Shown: positions 9,776 through 42,909, numbered from the stretch's first letter. The stretch: DNA of 64,000 nt from a virus (IMGVR_UViG_3300025646_005482:32001-96000); one strand, 5' to 3'. Translations and numbers: made by a program. Notes: generated by a model not told the origin, from the letters alone.

Positions 9776-11119
9776 ATGGCTCTAGGCAAGCTTACACCAG
9801 CAGAACTCATCAAGAAAAATAGTAATACGGGCGAGCAGCGTATAGACATTCTCGAGAATGCTATCAAGAAAGGTGTCGCCCTTCCTCTCGTTGACGGTAG
9901 TGAAGTAGTACTCGAAAACTCTAAAGAAAACTTAGATGCGGTCGAAGGTTTCAAAACCGCTGGCAAAGCTTTCGATTTAAAAGTAAAAACTGGTCAAAGA
10001 GTTATCAAATCATCTGATATCGGCAAGTCACCTCTTTTTGGAGGAGGTATAGGCGGTGCAGGTGGTGGTACACAACAAACTGCGATCGTAGAATCAATGC
10101 AGTGTGTTTATCTGCAGGCGATGTTAGATAATCCAAATCAGAATATCGAGTTTTTCACACCGTCAGTGATGAAAAAAGCATATGCTAGGTGCGAAGTAGG
10201 TGGTACTACATTCGACGAGATTCGAGACTTTGATCCGAGTTGGCACGTATCAGCATTCTTATCTGCTGAGATCATTATCAAAAATGGTTATGTCAATAAG
10301 AATCAAGTCTTTCATCGCGATTCAAATACGATGAAGAAGATCTACGCTATGAAGAAAGAGGCATTCAAAAATTCTGGCCTTGACATTCTGACTGATGACA
10401 AGTGGAATCCCGGTGATATATGGGCAGTCGATAAAAACTTTGACGTCAGTAAGATGCGAACCCGCACTATACAAGAATACAACGAAGATATTCTAATGGC
10501 TTTTAAGAGCAGAAAATGTGTTGGTATATCATTGAAGCTAGTAAAAAGAAATGCACGTTTATCTGTATTGAACGACTCAAACGCGCGCCCATCTACACTC
10601 AAATACATAGAATCAAAGACACAAGGTCAACAACGCAATAATACTTTCTACTCTTCTAAAGGCGGTCAGATCATATATTCAGACGGCAAGATGGAGTGTA
10701 GACCAAATTCTCAGTTAGCTGTTATCAAAGCAGAGATTTTAGGCAAGACAGCGAGAGGTGGAGGTGCGAGTTGGGGCGTCATATCAGATATCGTCAAAGA
10801 TGTTGCTAATATAACATTGCCCAATAACTCTGCTATCGTTAACGCAGCAAAAGCAATGAAGCGCGGTGATAAGACAGCGATCAATAAGTTCTGGTTAGAT
10901 GCTAAATTAATTAACAGCAATATCAAAGAAGCAGAATTTAAAGATCAAGTCCCAAAATGTGAGTTAGATTGGATACACGGTAAATATGGTGTATGTACTT
11001 TGTTGAGTACTTTGCAAAGAACAAAAGGTGCTAAAGCAAACGAGATAGTTAACTCTATTCACAACTATGCTGGTAGTCAATCAAAATTATCCAGTGTATA
11101 TGTTAAGGTTTACGAATGA
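9776..11119 (+). CDS. Putative PD-(D/E)XK-like nuclease-fold protein
   Basis: E.MQC...DKWNPGDIW...GISLK arrangement. Confidence 0.45.
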   Translation: MALGKLTPAELIKKNSNTGEQRIDILENAIKKGVALPLVDGSEVVLENSKENLDAVEGFKTAGKAFDLKVKTGQRVIKSSDIGKSPLFGGGIGGAGGGTQQTAIVESMQCVYLQAMLDNPNQNIEFFTPSVMKKAYARCEVGGTTFDEIRDFDPSWHVSAFLSAEIIIKNGYVNKNQVFHRDSNTMKKIYAMKKEAFKNSGLDILTDDKWNPGDIWAVDKNFDVSKMRTRTIQEYNEDILMAFKSRKCVGISLKLVKRNARLSVLNDSNARPSTLKYIESKTQGQQRNNTFYSSKGGQIIYSDGKMECRPNSQLAVIKAEILGKTARGGGASWGVISDIVKDVANITLPNNSAIVNAAKAMKRGDKTAINKFWLDAKLINSNIKEAEFKDQVPKCELDWIHGKYGVCTLLSTLQRTKGAKANEIVNSIHNYAGSQSKLSSVYVKVYE

Positions 11120-12345
11120 AAAAGTTTGATAAGTATATAGTAGAAGCTAAAAATACACACATGGAACATGTGGAGGATCTGATATTCAATGAAGGCGTGG
11201 TTGGTACTAGAAAGGCTATTAATTTCTTACGTGATCTCAGAGATATGCTTGCTGGTAGCAGCAAAAGTAGAATCTCTCGCACCGTTAAATGGGACGGCGC
11301 TCCGGCTGTATTCGCGGGCATTGATCCATCAGACGGAAAGTTTTTCGTCGCTAAAAAGGGAGTATTCAATAAGAATCCTAAAGTCTATAAGACTCCCGCT
11401 GACGTTAAGGCTGATACTAGCGGGGATCTCCAGGCTAAACTACTTGTATCACTCGCCGAATTTAGTAAACTCGGAATCAAAAAAGGTGTATATCAAGGAG
11501 ACTTGATGTTCACAGGCAACGATGTGAAGAAAGAGGATATCGATGGTCAGTCTTATTATACTTTCCAACCTAATACTATTGTTTACGCTGTTCCTGTGGA
11601 CAGTAATCTTGGACGACAGATCGCTCGCGCGAAGATCGGCATCGTATGGCATACCACTTACACTGGTAATTCTTTTGAGTCTATGTCTGCTAGTTTTGGA
11701 AAAGACATCGCTTCTACCTTTAATAATGTAGCAAGCATTTGGCAGACAGACGCCACATATAGAGATGAATCAGGTCGTGCTACATTCACCGAGAAAGAAA
11801 CAGAACAAGTCACAAATTTACTTGCTTCTGTTGGTCGTGTATTCAATAGTACGCCAGCCGATCTCATTAACTATTGGCATGAAAATCCTAAGTTACTCGA
11901 GCTCGTGAAGATATTCAATAATAGTTACGTACGTCAAGGAAAGAGAATTAATCCTCGGACACATACACAAGCATTCATGAACTGGATGACAGATAGATAT
12001 AAGAAAGAAATGGATAAAGTGAAGACTCCTGCCGCGAAAGCAAAGAAGAAGGCAGAGATGAAAGAGACAATGAGAATATTCAGTAAGTTCAACAAAGGTC
12101 AGATTCAGAATGTGTGGACGCTGATGGTACTTCTGTCGGACGCCAAACAGATGATTATAAATAAAATGAATCAAGCTGGTTCACTACGTACATTCTTGCG
12201 AACACGCAACGGATTTAAAGTGACAGCACCAGAGGGTTTCTGCGCTATCGACCACCTCAGCAATGATGCAGTGAAGATAGTAGACAGAATGGAATTTAGT
12301 AAAGCAAACTTTAGTCCCGATATTATTAAGGGTTGGCAAAGATAA
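11116..12345 (+). CDS. Conserved T4-like protein (DUF6267-like) with ligase-type KxDG motif and CTS-like N-terminus
   Basis: MKKFDKYIVEA; KNTHMEHVED; TVKWDGAPA; QGDLMF; PEGF; KIVDRMEFS. Confidence 0.65.
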   Translation: MKKFDKYIVEAKNTHMEHVEDLIFNEGVVGTRKAINFLRDLRDMLAGSSKSRISRTVKWDGAPAVFAGIDPSDGKFFVAKKGVFNKNPKVYKTPADVKADTSGDLQAKLLVSLAEFSKLGIKKGVYQGDLMFTGNDVKKEDIDGQSYYTFQPNTIVYAVPVDSNLGRQIARAKIGIVWHTTYTGNSFESMSASFGKDIASTFNNVASIWQTDATYRDESGRATFTEKETEQVTNLLASVGRVFNSTPADLINYWHENPKLLELVKIFNNSYVRQGKRINPRTHTQAFMNWMTDRYKKEMDKVKTPAAKAKKKAEMKETMRIFSKFNKGQIQNVWTLMVLLSDAKQMIINKMNQAGSLRTFLRTRNGFKVTAPEGFCAIDHLSNDAVKIVDRMEFSKANFSPDIIKGWQR

Positions 12346-36707: not shown

Positions 36708-37359
36708 ACTTTTTGAGCCCAAACCCCTAAAACGAATCAACGAGGATGGCCAGAGGCTGTACGTTACTGAAAATGGAGAAAAATATCCATCAGTAACGTC
36801 GGCCCTTGGTGCATTATCGAGGAAGAAGATATGGGAATGGAGACAGCGTGTTGGCGCCGAAACTGCCAACAAGATCTCAACACAGGCATCCCGCGCCGGT
36901 ACTGCAGTGCACCAGATTGCGGAAGACTATATTCTCGGACAGATGAAAGAAGACGTGAATCCGATCGCGTTAAACACCTTTCGAACCATCCAGCCGTATC
37001 TCGATCAGAAAGTGGACGAGATCTACGGCGTGGAACTGCAAATGTATTCGACCGAATTAAAAACGGCCGGAACAACTGATCTTATCTGCCGCTATGACGG
37101 CAAAAACACAATCTTAGACTTCAAAACATCTAAACGTTGGAAATCAAAAGACGAGATTCACTCGTACTTTATGCAAGGCGCTGCGTATGCTACGATGGTC
37201 AAAGAACACTATGATATGGATATCGAACGTATCGTGATTCTGATGGCCGTAAATGCTGGTGAAGGTGCACTCGTATTTGATGAAGCACTCGAAGATTGGC
37301 AACCAATGACACGTAAATTCTTTGATCTATATCATAAAGGAAAACTGAAGGATTTTTAA
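36676..37359 (+). CDS. PD-(D/E)XK exonuclease (Cas4-like fold)
   Basis: YPSVT, RAGTAVH, AGTTD, DFKTS, YFMQGAAYA. Confidence 0.85.
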   Translation: MQEKNSDFALKLFEPKPLKRINEDGQRLYVTENGEKYPSVTSALGALSRKKIWEWRQRVGAETANKISTQASRAGTAVHQIAEDYILGQMKEDVNPIALNTFRTIQPYLDQKVDEIYGVELQMYSTELKTAGTTDLICRYDGKNTILDFKTSKRWKSKDEIHSYFMQGAAYATMVKEHYDMDIERIVILMAVNAGEGALVFDEALEDWQPMTRKFFDLYHKGKLKDF

Positions 37360-38033
37360 TGGCTACTAAAGAAGTATTTTCGGTTACACCTGATTTCTTA
37401 TCAGTTAAAGAGTGTGATCAACTAGTAAAGTTTTGTGAAAAGTTTAAGGATCGTTGGGGAAATGGCGAAGTATCCGAAGATGGAATTGCGGGTCAAGCTG
37501 CAAGAGATCCTATCCGTAACTGCAAAACGTGGTTTATTCAAGGCGACTTCGATGAGAAAGATCAGAGAGAAGCCGAAAGATTTTACAGGATGATTGATGA
37601 AAGATTCAATCGTGTAAAATTAGAAATGGGTCTTGATAACTGGGTTATTACTGAGAGAGAAGCATTTCAGTATACACACTACGAAAAAAATGACGGATAC
37701 GGTTGGCATAAAGATACACATGATGACCCATACGACTCTGCAATGGGTACTGATCCAGCGCATGACGGTCTAAATAGAAAATTAAGTATGACTATTTTTC
37801 TAAACGATTTTGTTGAGTGGGAAGAAGGTCGCTTTGAAATAGAAAATGCATGGACTCATGGACCTAATGATCCTCATTATAGAATTCATCAGTTCCAACC
37901 AGATTATAGTGATCAAATCAGAAAGGGTACAGCAATTGTTTTCCCTTCATATGTCCAACATAGAGTATCGCCAGTACAATCTGGTGTACGTAAATCACTC
38001 GTCGCTTGGTATCTTGGTCCGCCTTGGGTTTAA
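37359..38033 (+). CDS. 2OG-Fe(II) oxygenase (prolyl-4-hydroxylase-like)
   Basis: QYTHY, WHKD, RKLSMT, FPSYVQHRVSPV, RKSLVAW. Confidence 0.9.
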   Translation: MATKEVFSVTPDFLSVKECDQLVKFCEKFKDRWGNGEVSEDGIAGQAARDPIRNCKTWFIQGDFDEKDQREAERFYRMIDERFNRVKLEMGLDNWVITEREAFQYTHYEKNDGYGWHKDTHDDPYDSAMGTDPAHDGLNRKLSMTIFLNDFVEWEEGRFEIENAWTHGPNDPHYRIHQFQPDYSDQIRKGTAIVFPSYVQHRVSPVQSGVRKSLVAWYLGPPWV

Positions 38034-38506
38034 TTGTTTAGCGGATTATCGAGTATAATCTGAATCTTCTCTTCGAGATCTTTTCTGGTCTGACGTAAAT
38101 CAGCATCGAGCGTTCTCATACGCTCGTTTACTTTCGACTCAATACCATATACATCATCACGCAGTTCGCGCTGTGTAGTATTTGTCTGATCGTCTACACG
38201 TCTAGCAAGGGTCTCGACTTTATCCATATCTTCGGTTAGTCTATCTTCTGCTAACTCAAGCTTCTTCTCAAGCTGATCTATCGTAGCGAGGAGTGATGCC
38301 ATTGATTCTGACTGTACTGCCAATTCTTGTTCTATATGTGACATGTCAGGCGCCACGTACTCCTCAATCTGCGCCTTCATATTACGATAGTCATTATAAA
38401 ATTCGAACGCACCCCATGCACCACCACCGAGAGTCGATAGTGCTGTAAGGACCATAAACATCTTACCGCCCTTAAATGTCATGCCAGCAAATTCAAATTC
38501 TGCCAT
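38030..38506 (-). CDS. N-terminally membrane-anchored coiled-coil protein
   Basis: TM MFMVLTALSTLGGGAWGAF followed by long heptad repeats. Confidence 0.75.
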   Translation of the reverse strand: MAEFEFAGMTFKGGKMFMVLTALSTLGGGAWGAFEFYNDYRNMKAQIEEYVAPDMSHIEQELAVQSESMASLLATIDQLEKKLELAEDRLTEDMDKVETLARRVDDQTNTTQRELRDDVYGIESKVNERMRTLDADLRQTRKDLEEKIQIILDNPLNN

Positions 38507-38618
38507 TTTTTTCTGCCTTTTCCGCTATGTATCGTTCGGTTGTTCTAATAATAATATAACCTTTGTCATCATAGACTGTATAAATTAATTGGCCTCCGCG
38601 AGTAACTTCTATGCTCAT
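38493..38618 (-). CDS. Small protein (41 aa, not in ORF track)
   Basis: MSIEVTRGGQLIYTVYDDKGYIIIRTTERYIAEKAEKNGRI; coupled to neighbours. Confidence 0.6.
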   Translation of the reverse strand: MSIEVTRGGQLIYTVYDDKGYIIIRTTERYIAEKAEKNGRI

Positions 38619-39079
38619 TATAAAATACTCAGAAAGCCGGCAATGATCATACCAATAAACACAAAGAAGCCGCCGACAGCTGCTACGTCAATATAAAATG
38701 CTTTTTTACGGGCAGCTGCTTGTGCTGCTTCGATTCTACGTTGACGAATCATGCGTCTTTCTTTCATCATATCTTCGTAGAACTGTTGTTGACCAGTATA
38801 AAGCAAAAATTCATATAGTTCTTTTTCGAGTTGCTTTATCTTGTGTCGTGCTGCGGTGACTTGTAGTGCTTGTGCTTCTACACTACTTCCACCAAATAAT
38901 GATCCCACCATCGATGGGTTTTTTGCGTGTTGATCTGCCTCTGCTAGTTGTTCTTTCGCATCAAAGAATTTGGCAAATACATCGTACATATCCTGGACCT
39001 CTTGGCCCTTCTCAATCGCTCCTTTAATCATATTAAATGCAGAACCAGCCATCGACAACGCCGCGGCTATTTCTATCAT
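38618..39079 (-). CDS. Helical protein with C-terminal TM anchor
   Basis: Amphipathic N-terminus, coiled coil, TM VAAVGGFFVFIGMIIAGFLSIL. Confidence 0.75.
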   Translation of the reverse strand: MIEIAAALSMAGSAFNMIKGAIEKGQEVQDMYDVFAKFFDAKEQLAEADQHAKNPSMVGSLFGGSSVEAQALQVTAARHKIKQLEKELYEFLLYTGQQQFYEDMMKERRMIRQRRIEAAQAAARKKAFYIDVAAVGGFFVFIGMIIAGFLSIL

Positions 39080-39084
39080 TATGA

Positions 39085-39537
39085 TTACTCTCCGTTAGCT
39101 AATACACTCGGTGCCGTCGGAGCCTCAAACTGTAGGTTCCGAAGGTTTTGTATCTCCTGTTGTAACTTCAGCACCTCGAGCCTTTTCTTTTCCAACTCGA
39201 GTTTGTATAATACATTGCAATTGAGTCTTTCTTTCGGCGCTCCAATTGGTATGGTGATTCTACCATATACGCCGATGTCTCTCATAAAATCGTCTTGTCG
39301 GAAATTATAAGTTGGATCCATACCACCATAAAATGGATCATTCTGATTTAAAATTCCTACAACACCGAACTCTACGTTCGTTGATGAACCGATAGCAGCC
39401 GAACATTCCAAATCACCAGCCCGTATTCTATCTGACTGGAAACTCTGCGGAGATTGTGGAATTGCTAAGTTGATACCACTTGATTGTGCATATGTAAACA
39501 TCGGTAACATCAACAGCATTATAATTATTTTTTTCAT
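39085..39537 (-). CDS. Secreted protein with Cys-bounded beta hairpin and coiled coil
   Basis: Signal peptide MKKIIIMLLMLPMFTYA; C...VEFGVVG...IGVYGRITIP...C; heptads. Confidence 0.75.
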   Translation of the reverse strand: MKKIIIMLLMLPMFTYAQSSGINLAIPQSPQSFQSDRIRAGDLECSAAIGSSTNVEFGVVGILNQNDPFYGGMDPTYNFRQDDFMRDIGVYGRITIPIGAPKERLNCNVLYKLELEKKRLEVLKLQQEIQNLRNLQFEAPTAPSVLANGE

Positions 39538-39911
39538 TTTACTTTTGAACATACCCTAGAAGAAACTAAACTCGCAGATAGTCTTTGTTTCTCATGTAAT
39601 GAGAGAGAACAAATGTAACGCACACGCGGTACATCTGCCTTTCTTATGTATATATTTATTTTTTTGCGCTCGAGATACTGTACATTTACTGTACGGCCAT
39701 CAGTCATGGCCCACGGTATATGTTCCCAATTATCGGTGTATACTTCGAAAGTGTAGTATGATACGTCTGCGCGAGAGTTCCAAAGAAGCATCTCAGCAAC
39801 ATAAACATCTTTGACGTATGACATTTTGAGTTCGGGATAGGTGGGAGTCCATGCGTGGGCCCATGCGGACCCACTCATGACTGTAAACAAGAGAGCCATA
39901 ATATAGCGCAT
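39534..39911 (-). CDS. Secreted Ig-like protein, pilus-chaperone-like
   Basis: Signal peptide ending AWA; TP...L.N....Y..EV.T..W strand pattern; Cys pair. Confidence 0.55.
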   Translation of the reverse strand: MRYIMALLFTVMSGSAWAHAWTPTYPELKMSYVKDVYVAEMLLWNSRADVSYYTFEVYTDNWEHIPWAMTDGRTVNVQYLERKKINIYIRKADVPRVRYICSLSLHEKQRLSASLVSSRVCSKVK

Positions 39912-39913
39912 GG

Positions 39914-40411
39914 TTAGATCGCTATGCAGTTAGCCTGAACGATTGCAGTGTACGTACCGCCAGGAAGTGCTTTGCTAATACCATAGTCAGCTTCTGAACT
40001 GACTTTGAACCATGTGCTACCGGTATACTCGAGATCGATCTCAGTAGTAGAATCATACTCAATCTTACTCGTATCGTATGCAGACATCTGAGCATCAGAT
40101 ACGGCCTCTACCGCAGTAGAACCTGTCCATGCAATTGTATCTGAAAGTGCAGGACTTTGTGAGAAAGATGAAGGATGAGTGATGACCGCTTTATACGCGT
40201 TAGCGATAACAACATCATAACGTACAACAGGCTCTACACCACCATCAACTGAGTCAGTACTAAGTACGCTTGCTGAAGGGTTACCGTATACACCTTGCTT
40301 ATCAAGAGTGACAACACACTTAGACTCAACATTTCCTACGATAGGAGCATCGAGTGCTTGTGCGCTGATAGCTGTCATGGCGATTGCTGCTGCCAAAATT
40401 TTCTTGAACAT
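39914..40411 (-). CDS. Secreted pilin/fimbrial-subunit-like protein
   Basis: Signal peptide ending AQA; N-terminal IVGNVESKC; C-terminal GGTYTAIVQANC. Confidence 0.55.
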   Translation of the reverse strand: MFKKILAAAIAMTAISAQALDAPIVGNVESKCVVTLDKQGVYGNPSASVLSTDSVDGGVEPVVRYDVVIANAYKAVITHPSSFSQSPALSDTIAWTGSTAVEAVSDAQMSAYDTSKIEYDSTTEIDLEYTGSTWFKVSSEADYGISKALPGGTYTAIVQANCIAI

Positions 40412-41292
40412 TACTGTTCTCCTTTGTATTGTGATTTGACTAACTTATCATGTAGTACATCTTGTGCAATAAGTAGGCTTCGACCCCGGTTATTTCTAGG
40501 CATCGAAGCATCTTTGAGTTGAATTGTTTCACGATATACTGTATCAGGCAATTGCTCATAATATAGATTAGAGAATTGGCTCATAGCCATTACTTGATTA
40601 TGCTTCGCTGTATCTTGAGCATTTTGTAATGATCTACTAGCTATACCTAATACTGTCTCGAGATCAACCTCTTCTTCATCGTCTTCTTTTTCCTCCATGT
40701 CTTTGCGCTCACGTTCCTCTTCATCTTCGTCGCGCATAGTCATCTCTCTATCAATCTCGTCTTGTACGAATGTATTATCAAGTGGATCTACAACTTCAAC
40801 CGATGGAATATCAGGCATTTGTACCTTATATCCTGGACATGATGGATCCGATTGCGGATCAAAACATGTGTCATACTGATATGTGTAAATAACTGACGGA
40901 TCAGTTACTTTACCATCACCTTCCCATACTATTTCTCCGTCTCCCCAATAATCGATAGGTATTCCACCAACACCTATCACTTTGAAGATAGAATTTCCTG
41001 GCAGACCTGTCCAATCATCTGTCTCTCGAAAGATGTATCCACCATCGACTGCATTCTCGTTTTGCACAGTAACAAGCAATGGATCCTCAGGATTTTTGAT
41101 TGTCGTATACCTATACAAAACTGTGTTGACTTGCAAACCAGCCTGCTGAGGCAAGAGATTACTCATGACCCAATTGTATCCATTCTGTGCAGCGTTGGTC
41201 GTTTGACCAAATACCTGTTCAGAGTAGGAGTAAGAGGGCGAGTATGCCAGCAAGACCGCCACCAGCCATGGCAGTTTTCTTTGTTTGCTCAT
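40411..41292 (-). CDS. Secreted protein with beta domain, CxDPxxDPxCPGY motif and acidic coil
   Basis: Signal peptide; CFDPQSDPSCPGY; E/D-rich segment. Confidence 0.7.
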   Translation of the reverse strand: MSKQRKLPWLVAVLLAYSPSYSYSEQVFGQTTNAAQNGYNWVMSNLLPQQAGLQVNTVLYRYTTIKNPEDPLLVTVQNENAVDGGYIFRETDDWTGLPGNSIFKVIGVGGIPIDYWGDGEIVWEGDGKVTDPSVIYTYQYDTCFDPQSDPSCPGYKVQMPDIPSVEVVDPLDNTFVQDEIDREMTMRDEDEEERERKDMEEKEDDEEEVDLETVLGIASRSLQNAQDTAKHNQVMAMSQFSNLYYEQLPDTVYRETIQLKDASMPRNNRGRSLLIAQDVLHDKLVKSQYKGEQ

Positions 41293-41827
41293 CTATTCCA
41301 TCCTTTGGTTTCTCTATTGTTTCATTATCAGCACCTGCAGCAAGCCACGCGGCTTTTGCTTCAGCACCGATCAAACCATCATATGGACATGGTGTACCAG
41401 CATTCATCATTGCATTGAATACTCTTTCGTCTGTACACATGAGTGACACTGCTGCCACTTTCATACCCATATCATATAGAGTTTTGGCATTCTTCAGTCG
41501 TTCACAGTTCTCATCAGTAAATTGTGTACCTGTAGAAATACCGAGAATTTGTGTTTGTACTGCTCCAGCTACACCAAAAGTACAAAGATCAGAGTTCGAT
41601 GTATTGATAGTTGGTGTAATCGCCGATGCAGGAGGCGACTTCAGTGTTGTGGTAGTATTACCGTTGGTCGTAATTGTGCTTGTAGTTGTCGACTCAGTTC
41701 TGATTAAATTAGGATCTACAGCTTCTTCTTGAGCGATTACAATTGCAGGTAGCCACAGAAAACCGAAAATGATGATAATGCAAAACAGAGTGACTCTAAG
41801 CAAGCTTGAGTCTAATTTATCAAACAT
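41219..41827 (-). CDS. Exported protein with Thr-rich stalk, 4 Cys and C-terminal Gly-Gly/hydrophobic tail
   Basis: N-terminal TM/signal; TTTSTITTNGNTTTT; SPPASAI; AGGGLAGILALLLLL. Confidence 0.75.
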   Translation of the reverse strand: MFDKLDSSLLRVTLFCIIIIFGFLWLPAIVIAQEEAVDPNLIRTESTTTSTITTNGNTTTTLKSPPASAITPTINTSNSDLCTFGVAGAVQTQILGISTGTQFTDENCERLKNAKTLYDMGMKVAAVSLMCTDERVFNAMMNAGTPCPYDGLIGAEAKAAWLAAGADNETIEKPKDGIDEQTKKTAMAGGGLAGILALLLLL

Positions 41828-41910
41828 ATTATTTTTACCTATAAAATTTTAAAATTGATTTTTAAATACATCAATATAGGCATACTGTTAGAGTGGCTCA
41901 TCCACATAAG

Positions 41911-41918
41911 TATTTATA
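41911..41918 (-). promoter_or_regulatory. T4-type late promoter for the minus-strand exported-protein operon
   Basis: TATTTATA on the plus strand. Confidence 0.75.
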
Positions 41919-41932
41919 CAAACCTGATCCCA

Positions 41933-42013
41933 GGCCTGTCAATAAATGGACAGGCCCCTGCACCTCACGGCTTATACGCAAAAGTTATAAGCTTAGAAGT
42001 AAAAAGTCTAAGC
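41933..42013. repeat. Cluster of inverted repeats between divergent promoters
   Basis: GGCCTGTC/GACAGGCC; GCTTATA-N9-TATAAGC; GCTTAGA-N9-TCTAAGC. Confidence 0.7.
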
Positions 42014-42019
42014 CAGGCA

Positions 42020-42048
42020 TGTAACGGGGCCTCCCCATGAGGTAGAAT
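42020..42048 (+). promoter_or_regulatory. sigma70-type early promoter
   Basis: TGTAAC-N17-TAGAAT. Confidence 0.55.
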
Positions 42049-42073
42049 ACCAGCCCCCTTGAGGAGAATATCT

Positions 42074-42265
42074 ATGTATACTTATGAACTCGACTGCGCT
42101 TCTGACTGCACCCTCGGCTACCTCTCTGATCTTTGCACCAAATACAATGCACACTATCGCTCTCGCATCCACTATGGACCTGCCGGGGGCAATCCGTATA
42201 TCCAATTCATTTTTAATAACCAAAACGACTTAGATCATTTTGTTATTGATTATGTAAATAATTAA
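42074..42265 (+). CDS. Small early protein
   Basis: SD GAGGAG; GPAGGNPYIQF. Confidence 0.7.
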   Translation: MYTYELDCASDCTLGYLSDLCTKYNAHYRSRIHYGPAGGNPYIQFIFNNQNDLDHFVIDYVNN

Positions 42266-42388
42266 CAAAAATAATCTAAAAAAATCTCTAATGAAATCAA
42301 TAACTTGCAAGCGCCCAAAAAGTCTAATCAAATCATAGACTTAGAGGTGTACAACCCCATCTCAGCAGGGTATAATGGCTCTTGTCAA
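42252..42388 (+). repeat. Early-promoter cassette copy 2: two IHF-like sites 36 bp apart plus sigma70 promoter
   Basis: AATCAATAACTTG 42295-42307, AATCATAGACTTA 42331-42343, TGTACA 42348-42353, TATAAT 42371-42376. Confidence 0.75.
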
Positions 42389-42402
42389 ATGGAGATATAC
42401 TT

Positions 42403-42909
42403 ATGAAAGCGATCATTCAGACTCAACACATGGAAAACTACGGTGCCCACGATTGGGACGGCGAGGGTTCTTGTCCGCAGTACTGGAAGCCCAAAGGTGG
42501 TAGCACCTACATCTTCAACTGCACCATCGAGGAGAACATGGACCCTCAGTGGTGGGCCCGTGTCGAGGCTGCTTGCACCAGCAAGAGCGAGTACTTTGAG
42601 GAGTACTCAGTTGGTGAGACTGTGGTCGATGATATCGACTTTCGTGTCTCTGACCACACCCCTGACTGGGACGCACCTTATTATGGTACGATCAAGGAAG
42701 ATCGTATCTCTTTCAACCGCACGACCGAAAACCGGCCGATGTCTGGTTGGCGCAAAGAAATCGCTAAGGAGTTCACCGCGTACGACGTGTTGGACAATGG
42801 CGAGGAAGTACATCACGGTGTTGCCTTCGAAATGGTAAACGGTGATGTTATACCTTTCGCTGAGCTTCGCGCTTGGCTGGACAAGTACGCACCTGCGGAG
42901 GCAGCGTAA
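42403..42909 (+). CDS. Early hypothetical protein
   Basis: SD GGAG; TQHMENYGAHDWDGEGSCPQYWKPKGG; ends APAEAA. Confidence 0.8.
   Translation: MKAIIQTQHMENYGAHDWDGEGSCPQYWKPKGGSTYIFNCTIEENMDPQWWARVEAACTSKSEYFEEYSVGETVVDDIDFRVSDHTPDWDAPYYGTIKEDRISFNRTTENRPMSGWRKEIAKEFTAYDVLDNGEEVHHGVAFEMVNGDVIPFAELRAWLDKYAPAEAA

Follow-up and report, generated by a model that had tools for sequence, protein, structure and literature searches.

The spanins, of which lambda Rz/Rz1 is the reference pair, combine a late-made inner-membrane protein of type II topology, carrying a periplasmic coiled coil with a conserved C-terminal tip, with an outer-membrane lipoprotein whose reading frame is embedded in or overlaps that of its partner. 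Chaperone-usher pili, including the archaic Csu/SCPU type, use disulfide-containing immunoglobulin (Ig)-like subunits, an usher and a chaperone of two domains (PapD_N and PapD_C), and a curli (type VIII secretion) cassette is common to pelagimyophages and HTVC023P-type podophages (PMC7029224, PMC9599517). Each of these systems shares some features with a gene cassette that we have followed up in a 64,000-nt window (positions 32001-96000) of the 160-kb IMG/VR virus record IMGVR_UViG_3300025646_005482, where eight coupled minus-strand open reading frames (ORFs), here called o1 to o8, span 38030-41827. No description of these genes was found in the literature on pelagiphage spanins, on PapD-like phage proteins or on phage HTVC115P. 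The reading that we favour, and regard as a serious possibility whilst still short of probable, is that the cassette encodes a late-made, periplasm-spanning complex of Sec-exported disulfide proteins that is tied to lysis and has no lipoprotein. Working alongside the lysis machinery, it would most likely serve to disrupt or manage the outer membrane as infection ends. We argue for a link to lysis because the gene order is kept in two virus morphotypes, a smaller module lies beside lysis genes in cultured phages, o8 has the topology and size of an i-spanin, the module carriers give no match to the o-spanin family phrog_812, and the cassette is plausibly expressed late.

Layout and conservation of the cassette

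The junctions between the eight ORFs consist of overlaps of 74, 1, 4, 1 and 14 nt and gaps of 2 and 5 nt, and both neighbours of the cassette lie on the plus strand (a 2OG-Fe(II) oxygenase at 37359-38033 and an ORF at 42382-42909). A T4-type late-promoter-like octamer, TATAAATA, stands on the minus strand at 41911-41918, 84 nt upstream of the o1 ATG. It occurs 10 times in the window against 4.95 copies expected, but this count alone is weak evidence because five of 100 shuffles also gave at least 10 copies. The octamer is retained at -76 to -91 from o1 in 10 of 18 T4-like relatives, in which the bases around it differ, and in podovirus-like contigs o1 lies directly behind a putative portal gene; for these two reasons late expression of the cassette is plausible. 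Close relatives also have a TTGACAGG element about 20 nt upstream of TATAAATA (window region 41919-42060), and a small plus-strand ORF at 42059-42265 encodes a 68-aa product with three Cys and no family match.

By signal-peptide calls made from hydropathy and from reading of the sequences, each of o1 to o5 starts with a basic stretch that leads into a hydrophobic core (within residues 3-32), and small residues occupy -3/-1 of the inferred cleavage sites, which are, in order, VIA/Q, SYS/Y, AQA/L, AWA/H and TYA/Q. Each mature part holds an even number of Cys, all invariant across the family alignments (C82, C108, C131 and C147 in o1; C143 and C152 in o2; C32 and C162 in o3; C101 and C121 in o4; C45 and C107 in o5). 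Beyond the signal peptides, hydrophobic segments are found in the tail of o1 (residues 183-202) and as transmembrane (TM) segments in o6 (125-153) and o8 (16-34), whilst no lipobox is present in o1-o7. The last product, o8 (38030-38506, minus strand, 158 aa), has a short N-terminus, predicted to be cytoplasmic, and a Gly-rich TM segment, both conserved in its family alignment, followed by a long heptad-rich coiled coil, predicted to be periplasmic, and an invariant C-terminal NPL; it contains no Cys.

Much of this had been anticipated in an earlier note made from the sequence of the window. The ORF map agrees with its eight tight minus-strand ORFs, opposite to the flanking genes and behind a late promoter, and hydropathy and the family alignments bear out its five consecutive signal-peptide products with paired Cys, as well as the two membrane-anchored helical or coiled-coil proteins (o6 and o8) that close the operon. 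The amphipathic segment bracketed by Cys and followed by a helix is present in o1 and o5 as it described. Its claim of late expression is strengthened by the retention of the octamer in relatives, but the octamer itself is a consensus match only. Its expectation that the genes would occur together elsewhere was also correct, given the fixed order described next.

The o3 search recovered 38 viral contigs; the o1 search matched more than 500 stretches of viral contig sequence, and the 80 best were retained. Across more than 100 uncultured marine virus contigs the order o1-o2-o3-o4-o5-(o6, o7)-o8 is found wherever the contig is long enough. A six-gene core of o1-o5 and o8 keeps its order in about 100 contigs, both T4-like and podovirus-like, with identity to the window proteins dropping to 39-59% in the latter group. 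In these podovirus-like contigs a gene for an 826-aa product, which has no Pfam match and is read as portal on size and position only, ends 2 nt before o1, the o8 homologue stands directly behind o5, and the cassette as a whole lies between the portal and scaffold genes.

Clustered at 90% identity, the o1 family comprises more than 8000 clusters (a lower bound), o3 2813 and o4 635, none of them named or assigned a Pfam domain. At the 50% level a set of 1.84 billion proteins yields only about 10 full-length relatives of o3. No match to o3 was found in 50,697 phage records, and for its distant relative P0213 no locus was found in the viral contigs. Matches to o1 in genome collections (L126-L146) fall on contigs of 1.4-113 kb, most of them below 20 kb, belonging to metagenome-assembled genomes assigned to Melainabacteria, Opitutales, Aquiluna, Polaribacter, Methanobacteriota and others. 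These are probably mis-binned phage DNA, which is the simplest explanation because the assigned phyla are unrelated.

Using tblastn and profile searches for o1 and o8 in cultured phages, we found o1 homologues in the Pelagibacter phages HTVC115P, HTVC023P, HTVC202P, HTVC033P, Baldr and Mosig, in the Roseobacter phages CRP-207 and CRP-810, and also in JWAlpha and RSP15. Six of the Pelagibacter and Roseobacter phages carry a three-gene module consisting of an o1-like 4-Cys protein, a protein of 187-611 aa and an N-anchored coiled coil ending in NPL (HTVC115P gp54/53/49, HTVC023P gp45/46/48, HTVC202P gp24/25/26, Mosig 202/201/200, CRP-207 gp75/74/73 and CRP-810 gp53/52/51). The proteins at the o1 and o8 positions are homologues, the window o8 sharing 33.5% identity with HTVC115P gp49 (1e-23) and 25% identity end to end with a podovirus-contig homologue (E 4e-12). 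For the middle protein, position and size are the main criteria; in four of the six phages it shows a signal-peptide-like segment at the N-terminus, and a weak end-to-end alignment joins the last 44 residues of o2 to HTVC115P gp53 (E 0.003, probability 10%). All six phages lack o3-o5.

Some of the existing annotations of the module deserve comment. With its annotated GTG start, HTVC115P gp53 (L040:3405-4868) loses a good signal peptide. Starting 63 nt further upstream, at an ATG in the same frame, the protein would begin MIKSKSLSIILSLWLLLLLLLVSPSKA/E... and its gene would overlap gp54, the same arrangement as in o1/o2. CRP-810 gp51 (L041:5219-5641) and CRP-207 gp73 (L149:3292-3873) are named 'lysozyme' or 'putative lysozyme' in GenBank, yet both are NPL coiled coils of the o8 family, and since a Pfam search of CRP-810 gp51 returned no lysozyme domain, the annotation is probably wrong in both.

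Lysis genes and the proposed complex

The module and the cassette are repeatedly found close to lysis genes. In Mosig a PF11351 holin gene is directly upstream of the module (1.6e-5), in HTVC023P a Peptidase M15 gene is directly behind the o8-like gene, and in CRP-207 a gene for a protein with an EF-hand and two TM segments (EF-hand/2-TM) is directly downstream of the module. Every one of the eight podovirus-type records searched encodes a PF11351 holin (about 1e-25) downstream of the cassette, and in L035, the sole podovirus locus examined in detail, o8 is followed first by an EF-hand/2-TM gene, then by the holin gene and last by a gene with a weak, endolysin-like GH19 match (E 9.6e-5, under the Pfam cut-off). 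When we counted the 74 loci with at least 2.5 kb of sequence downstream of o8, an EF-hand/2-TM gene lay within 3 kb in 32 of them, in several at a distance of 4-15 nt. In at least six loci an Rz/Rz1-like pair follows o8 at a distance of 2-3.7 kb, and eight have a transglutaminase-like Cys peptidase within 3 kb downstream, mostly between o8 and the EF-hand gene. In L085 such a peptidase (10854-11276; Peptidase_C93, E 1.2e-4) comes after the EF-hand/2-TM gene and is a possible endolysin candidate.

Comparison with the spanins places o8 close to the inner-membrane partner. It has the N-terminal TM segment and coiled coil of an i-spanin and the same type II topology; its coiled coil, predicted to be periplasmic, is about as long as that of Rz, and its C-terminal tip is conserved. 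Late timing would also be shared, and many relatives carry o8 in or next to a holin/endolysin/spanin cluster; this location holds in podovirus-type contigs, Mosig, HTVC023P, CRP-207 and many T4-like contigs, but fails in the phage from which the window comes. The cassette differs in that o8 has no lipoprotein partner for the outer membrane and no Rz1-like frame embedded in or overlapping its gene; within o8 the minus strand offers no second ORF of 40 aa or more. The candidate partners of o8 would instead be the signal-peptide proteins o1, o2 and o5. The six cultured module carriers gave no match to the o-spanin phrog_812, which fits the idea that the module does that job but does not prove it, because spanin families are diverse. 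Hits to phrog_739 in the cultured phages are non-specific, a control matching 10 of 14 genomes.

The phage's own probable lysis cluster lies outside the window (G000:C1:117128-118582; L125:1474-2582). An EF-hand/2-TM gene at G000:C1:117128-117415, whose 109-aa product is a holin candidate, heads an overlapping Rz/Rz1-like pair (L125:1805-2582; G000:C1 about 117.4-118.2 kb) that encodes an N-anchored coiled coil (phrog_739, 6.6e-13) and a lipoprotein (phrog_812, 1.9e-11) with the lipobox LNSGC. By these sequence features the pair is a canonical i-spanin/o-spanin, and the idea that the cassette is the phage's only spanin is thereby ruled out. A phrog_7084 protein is encoded just upstream of the cluster. 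Neither the PF11351 holin nor the T4 holin PF11031 was found in the 160-kb record, and DUF7201 gave a sub-threshold hit only, elsewhere in the phage genome.

Several findings weigh against a complex that acts in lysis. The cassette lies 45 kb from the phage's EF-hand/spanin cluster, and does so in the closest relatives too, and because the phage has its own spanin pair the cassette is not needed as the sole disruptor of the outer membrane. The absence of a lipobox from every product and of Cys from o8 is unlike Rz/Rz1. The match of o8 to the Rz-like spanin phrog_312 reaches only E 0.013, which is not significant; its PDB hits, which include viral fusion proteins, are to generic coiled coils and were treated as compositional, and Pfam and PDB noise hits of the coiled-coil kind extend across residues 40-150. 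Gene adjacency is circumstantial, and the loci are interrelated, amounting to about five or six independent arrangements. We also know of no precedent in lysis for a chaperone-like protein paired with an Ig-like one. The trans-envelope complex or non-canonical lysis route that the earlier note had suggested thus gains support from gene context in relatives, but not from the position of the cassette in the phage itself.

The arrangement that we infer from gene order, conservation, hydropathy, the o4 fold and the neighbourhoods would be as follows. o8 would be held in the inner membrane by its N-terminal helix, with about 124 residues of helix reaching across the periplasm (roughly 18 nm if continuous, estimated at 1.5 A per residue), and its NPL tip might dock onto exported o1, o2 and perhaps o5 on the outer-membrane side. 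The o1, o2 and o8 positions would represent the older module common to the cultured Pelagibacter and Roseobacter phages, and in the present lineage the Ig-like o3, the PapD-like o4 and the hairpin-plus-coiled-coil o5 would have been inserted between o2 and o8. Once in the periplasm, o4 would probably hold o3 or another subunit by beta-strand complementation. As a tentative generalisation, the three-gene unit may be an unrecognised, lipoprotein-free trans-envelope machine, widespread among phages of marine Alphaproteobacteria and joined here by a single-domain PapD-like chaperone and an Ig-like subunit; viruses would then employ donor-strand-type assembly chemistry in the periplasm of a cell shortly before its lysis.

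Folds of o3 and o4 and competing explanations

The product whose fold search gave the clearer result is o4 (39534-39911, minus strand, 125 aa), which has a signal peptide, a single PapD/major sperm protein (MSP)-like Ig domain, an invariant His as the first residue after the inferred cleavage site and the pair Cys101/Cys121. Its AlphaFold2 model, made from 37 sequences, has a predicted local distance difference test score (pLDDT) of 84.8. The best VIA-align match is the N-domain of FimC (Z 10.6, root-mean-square deviation 2.7 A over 99 aligned residues), and the N-domains of SafB, PapD, YadV, CfaA, FaeE, CsuC, CupB2 and EcpB are also matched, giving nine chaperones at Z 10.6-7.8. MSP domains of the same superfamily are interleaved among them (Z 9.0-9.4), and Foldseek instead ranks Kir-channel Ig domains and MSP domains on top. 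Single MSP/PapD-like domains such as those of VAP-A, MOSPD2 and nematode MSP share the fold and bind short peptide strands, but they are eukaryotic and cytosolic and have neither a signal peptide nor a disulfide. On the strength of the model, o4 has a PapD-like fold of the chaperone N-domain type. Mature o4 is a single domain of 107 aa, aligning only to residues about 1-125 of FimC, SafB, PapD and CsuC, whereas chaperone-usher systems have a two-domain chaperone. Searched by sequence against the PDB, o4 gave only weak lectin hits (E 0.007). The invariant start of the mature protein (AWA/H-x-W-T-P-x-Y-P; His19, window 39855-39857) recalls the N-terminal-His metal sites of CopC, YcnI and lytic polysaccharide monooxygenase. 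A copper 'histidine brace' was considered for this residue; in the fold search copper proteins appear only below the chaperone hits, at Z 7.4-8.1.

Upstream of o4, o3 (39914-40411, minus strand, 165 aa) has a signal peptide, an invariant N-terminal extension (I24, G26, V28, E29 and K31), an Ig-like beta sandwich and the pair Cys32/Cys162. In its AlphaFold2 model (24 sequences, pLDDT 88.3) the sandwich begins at Cys32, and the invariant residues 24-31 are unstructured in the monomer. The top PDB hits in Foldseek are CfaB, FimG, Caf1, the PapG pilin domain, Csu and CanA, none of them significant (E 5e-3 to 3e-2, TM-scores 0.33-0.52). VIA-align places staphylococcal adhesin Ig domains first, at a Z of 7.9 that is inside the typical noise range of the tool, and has no chaperone-usher pilin in its top 50. 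The viral structure library BFVD returned nothing, neither o3 nor its 24 family members had a Pfam match at E<=1, and a PDB profile search was negative. One neighbour of o3 in ESM feature space is a cluster with the SCPU domain in 15% of its members (score 0.94, rank 24). We therefore describe o3, from its model, as a generic Ig-like sandwich for which a pilin fold is not established. Pfam scans gave no sequence-level tie of o3 or o4 to Fimbrial, SCPU or PapD_N (PF00345), hhalign returned nothing for o4 with FimC or for o3 with FimA, and the possibility that o3 and o4 are paralogues was rejected when their comparison was negative.

The combination of an exported, 145-residue Ig-like protein whose N-terminal extension is conserved, an adjacent protein with the chaperone N-domain fold, and disulfides in both (each predicted to be periplasmic) is what likens the cassette to chaperone-usher pili. 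It might accordingly build an usher-less fimbria or a surface or periplasmic fibre, in which o3 would polymerise by donor-strand exchange and be kept competent by o4 as a half-chaperone, o1 or o5 would form a pore that exposes it, and the outcome would be adhesion or aggregation of infected cells. The nine chaperone N-domains matched by o4, the pilins and CanA that fill the Foldseek list of o3, its SCPU-bearing feature neighbour and its invariant I-x-G-x-V extension, free of structure in the monomer model, would all suit such a fibre, and the curli cassette of pelagimyophages and HTVC023P-type podophages is a published precedent (PMC7029224, PMC9599517). However, the pilin hits of o3 are not significant, VIA-align puts unrelated Ig domains first at Z 7.9, o4 has no second chaperone domain, and no sequence-family signal was obtained for either protein. 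The 160-kb record contains no match to the usher PF00577 at E<=0.1, and no secretin or CsgG; no related locus has an usher-sized ORF between o1 and o8, the largest window product being of 293 aa. Five or six other cassette proteins have no counterpart in the pili, the cultured phages that carry the older module do so without o3-o5, and the lysis-gene context is left unexplained. We regard a fibre as unlikely on this balance. The earlier note was thus right that the system has no usher and that 39534-39911 encodes a small beta protein resembling a PapD N-domain; for 39914-40411, in which it saw a likeness to pilins, the model gives an Ig-like sandwich and the pilin fold is not established, and its idea of adhesion or aggregation found no direct support.

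The curli precedent extends to other properties, both cassettes being multi-gene envelope or secretion units that are abundant in marine viromes, occur in myo- and podoviruses alike and occupy a variable region of T4-like genomes. The genes, however, are entirely different. Identity with curli or a type VIII secretion system is ruled out because neither CsgG nor CsgF was found: o1-o8 have no Pfam hit to CsgG, CsgF or curlin, and the entire record contains no match to CsgG (PF03783).

Superinfection exclusion or receptor masking would have the exported proteins alter the envelope against adsorption or injection by other phages, or by the phage's own progeny on debris. Known exclusion proteins such as T4 Imm and Sp are early, whereas the cassette has a putative late promoter or would be co-transcribed with portal and lysis genes, and a six-gene order that stays fixed down to 40% identity across virus families is unlike the fast-changing, single-gene functions seen in exclusion. 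We consider this explanation improbable, even though all the products are predicted to be envelope-directed and the cassette is placed in a variable region amid replication genes (PhoH, exonuclease, 2OG oxygenase and gp32), the sort of region in which pelagimyophages keep envelope-modifying genes (PMC7029224).

It is quite improbable, in our view, that the cassette regulates the timing of lysis, as a complex that senses the periplasm or outer membrane and controls a holin such as the EF-hand/2-TM protein, by a logic like that of T4 RI/RIII lysis inhibition. The neighbourhood shared with holin candidates, the coexistence of a canonical spanin pair and the conserved N-terminus and Gly-rich TM segment of o8, which suggest contacts within the membrane, would be accommodated by such a regulator. 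However, no resemblance to RI, RIII or any other antiholin is seen, a sensor would hardly seem to need five exported disulfide proteins, and the EF-hand/2-TM protein is a candidate holin only. That the products are virion or virion-assembly components merely seeming to be exported is highly improbable, since tailed-phage virions assemble in the cytoplasm, the five signal peptides are of the cleavable type and go with even counts of invariant Cys, and no structural PHROG hits were obtained, despite the placement of the podovirus cassette between portal and scaffold genes and of the HTVC115P module behind tail-fibre-like genes.

Other products, genome setting and significance

Among the remaining products, o1 (41219-41827, minus strand, 202 aa) consists of a signal peptide, a Thr/Ser-rich linker, a near-invariant 4-Cys domain (about 62-154) and the C-terminal hydrophobic tail, and it matches phrog_20531 at 6e-17. 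It overlaps o2 by 74 nt (41219-41292, minus strand), a stretch of DNA that yields the hydrophobic tail of o1 in one frame and the o2 signal peptide in another; an overlap of about 70 nt (71-74) is kept in T4-like and podovirus-type loci, L035:5105-5175 among them, and with the upstream ATG of gp53 it is also seen in HTVC115P, at L040:4792-4868. o2 (40411-41292, minus strand, 293 aa) has a signal peptide, a beta-rich N-domain with two invariant Cys, an acidic low-complexity linker and a conserved helical C-terminus; it has no Pfam, PHROG or PDB match, and its best ESM Atlas score, 0.78, is noise. o5 (39085-39537, minus strand, 150 aa) starts with a signal peptide, has two amphipathic beta segments enclosed by Cys45 and Cys107, and closes with a heptad helix at the C-terminus. 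Its ORF reaches 39552, the start at 39537 beginning MKKIII..., and it matches phrog_37374 at 1.7e-6. The possibility that o1 and o5 are paralogues was rejected, hhalign aligning their signal peptides only. No sequence link to a solved structure in the PDB was found for o1, o2, o3 or o5. Two further genes occur in a minority of loci, namely o6 (38618-39079, minus strand, 153 aa), with a helical N-terminal part and a C-terminal TM anchor, and the subclade-specific o7 (38493-38618, minus strand, 41 aa), which encodes a small soluble protein.

Small, very basic proteins recur beside the module (L085:9976-10549, L041:5643-5894, L149:4228-4506 and L148:7041-7693). Several of them end in ...AAYWADKVKW, the one in L085 has a sub-threshold match to DUF5872, and they occur in both myo- and podovirus contigs as well as in cultured roseo- and pelagiphages.

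The source virus is a T4-like marine myovirus; its record has about 40% G+C and carries gp32, a helicase loader, PhoH and baseplate genes. Judging by the hosts of its relatives, it presumably infects a Gram-negative marine heterotroph. A cyanophage was considered and rejected, psbA not being found in the record.

Returning to the lysis-linked, periplasm-spanning complex that we favour, its interest lies partly in how common its genes are. The o1 and o3 families, with more than 8000 and 2813 clusters, are very abundant in ocean viromes and have had no name, Pfam family or solved relative. SAR11 and Roseobacter, the hosts of the module phages, are dominant marine heterotrophs, and we know of no description of how their phages breach the outer membrane. 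The work connects the eight-gene cassette, known from uncultured viruses, with a smaller module that six cultured phages carry, which makes the question testable at the bench. If the cassette is indeed a lysis device, it would represent a new architecture beside the two spanin classes and the disruptin. Strand complementation between o3 and o4, if it is real, would be the first viral use of chaperone-usher-type chemistry, since donor-strand-type assembly is, to our knowledge, so far found only in bacterial pili. Either way, the cassette represents a second multi-gene envelope module exchanged between myo- and podoviruses, after the curli cassette.

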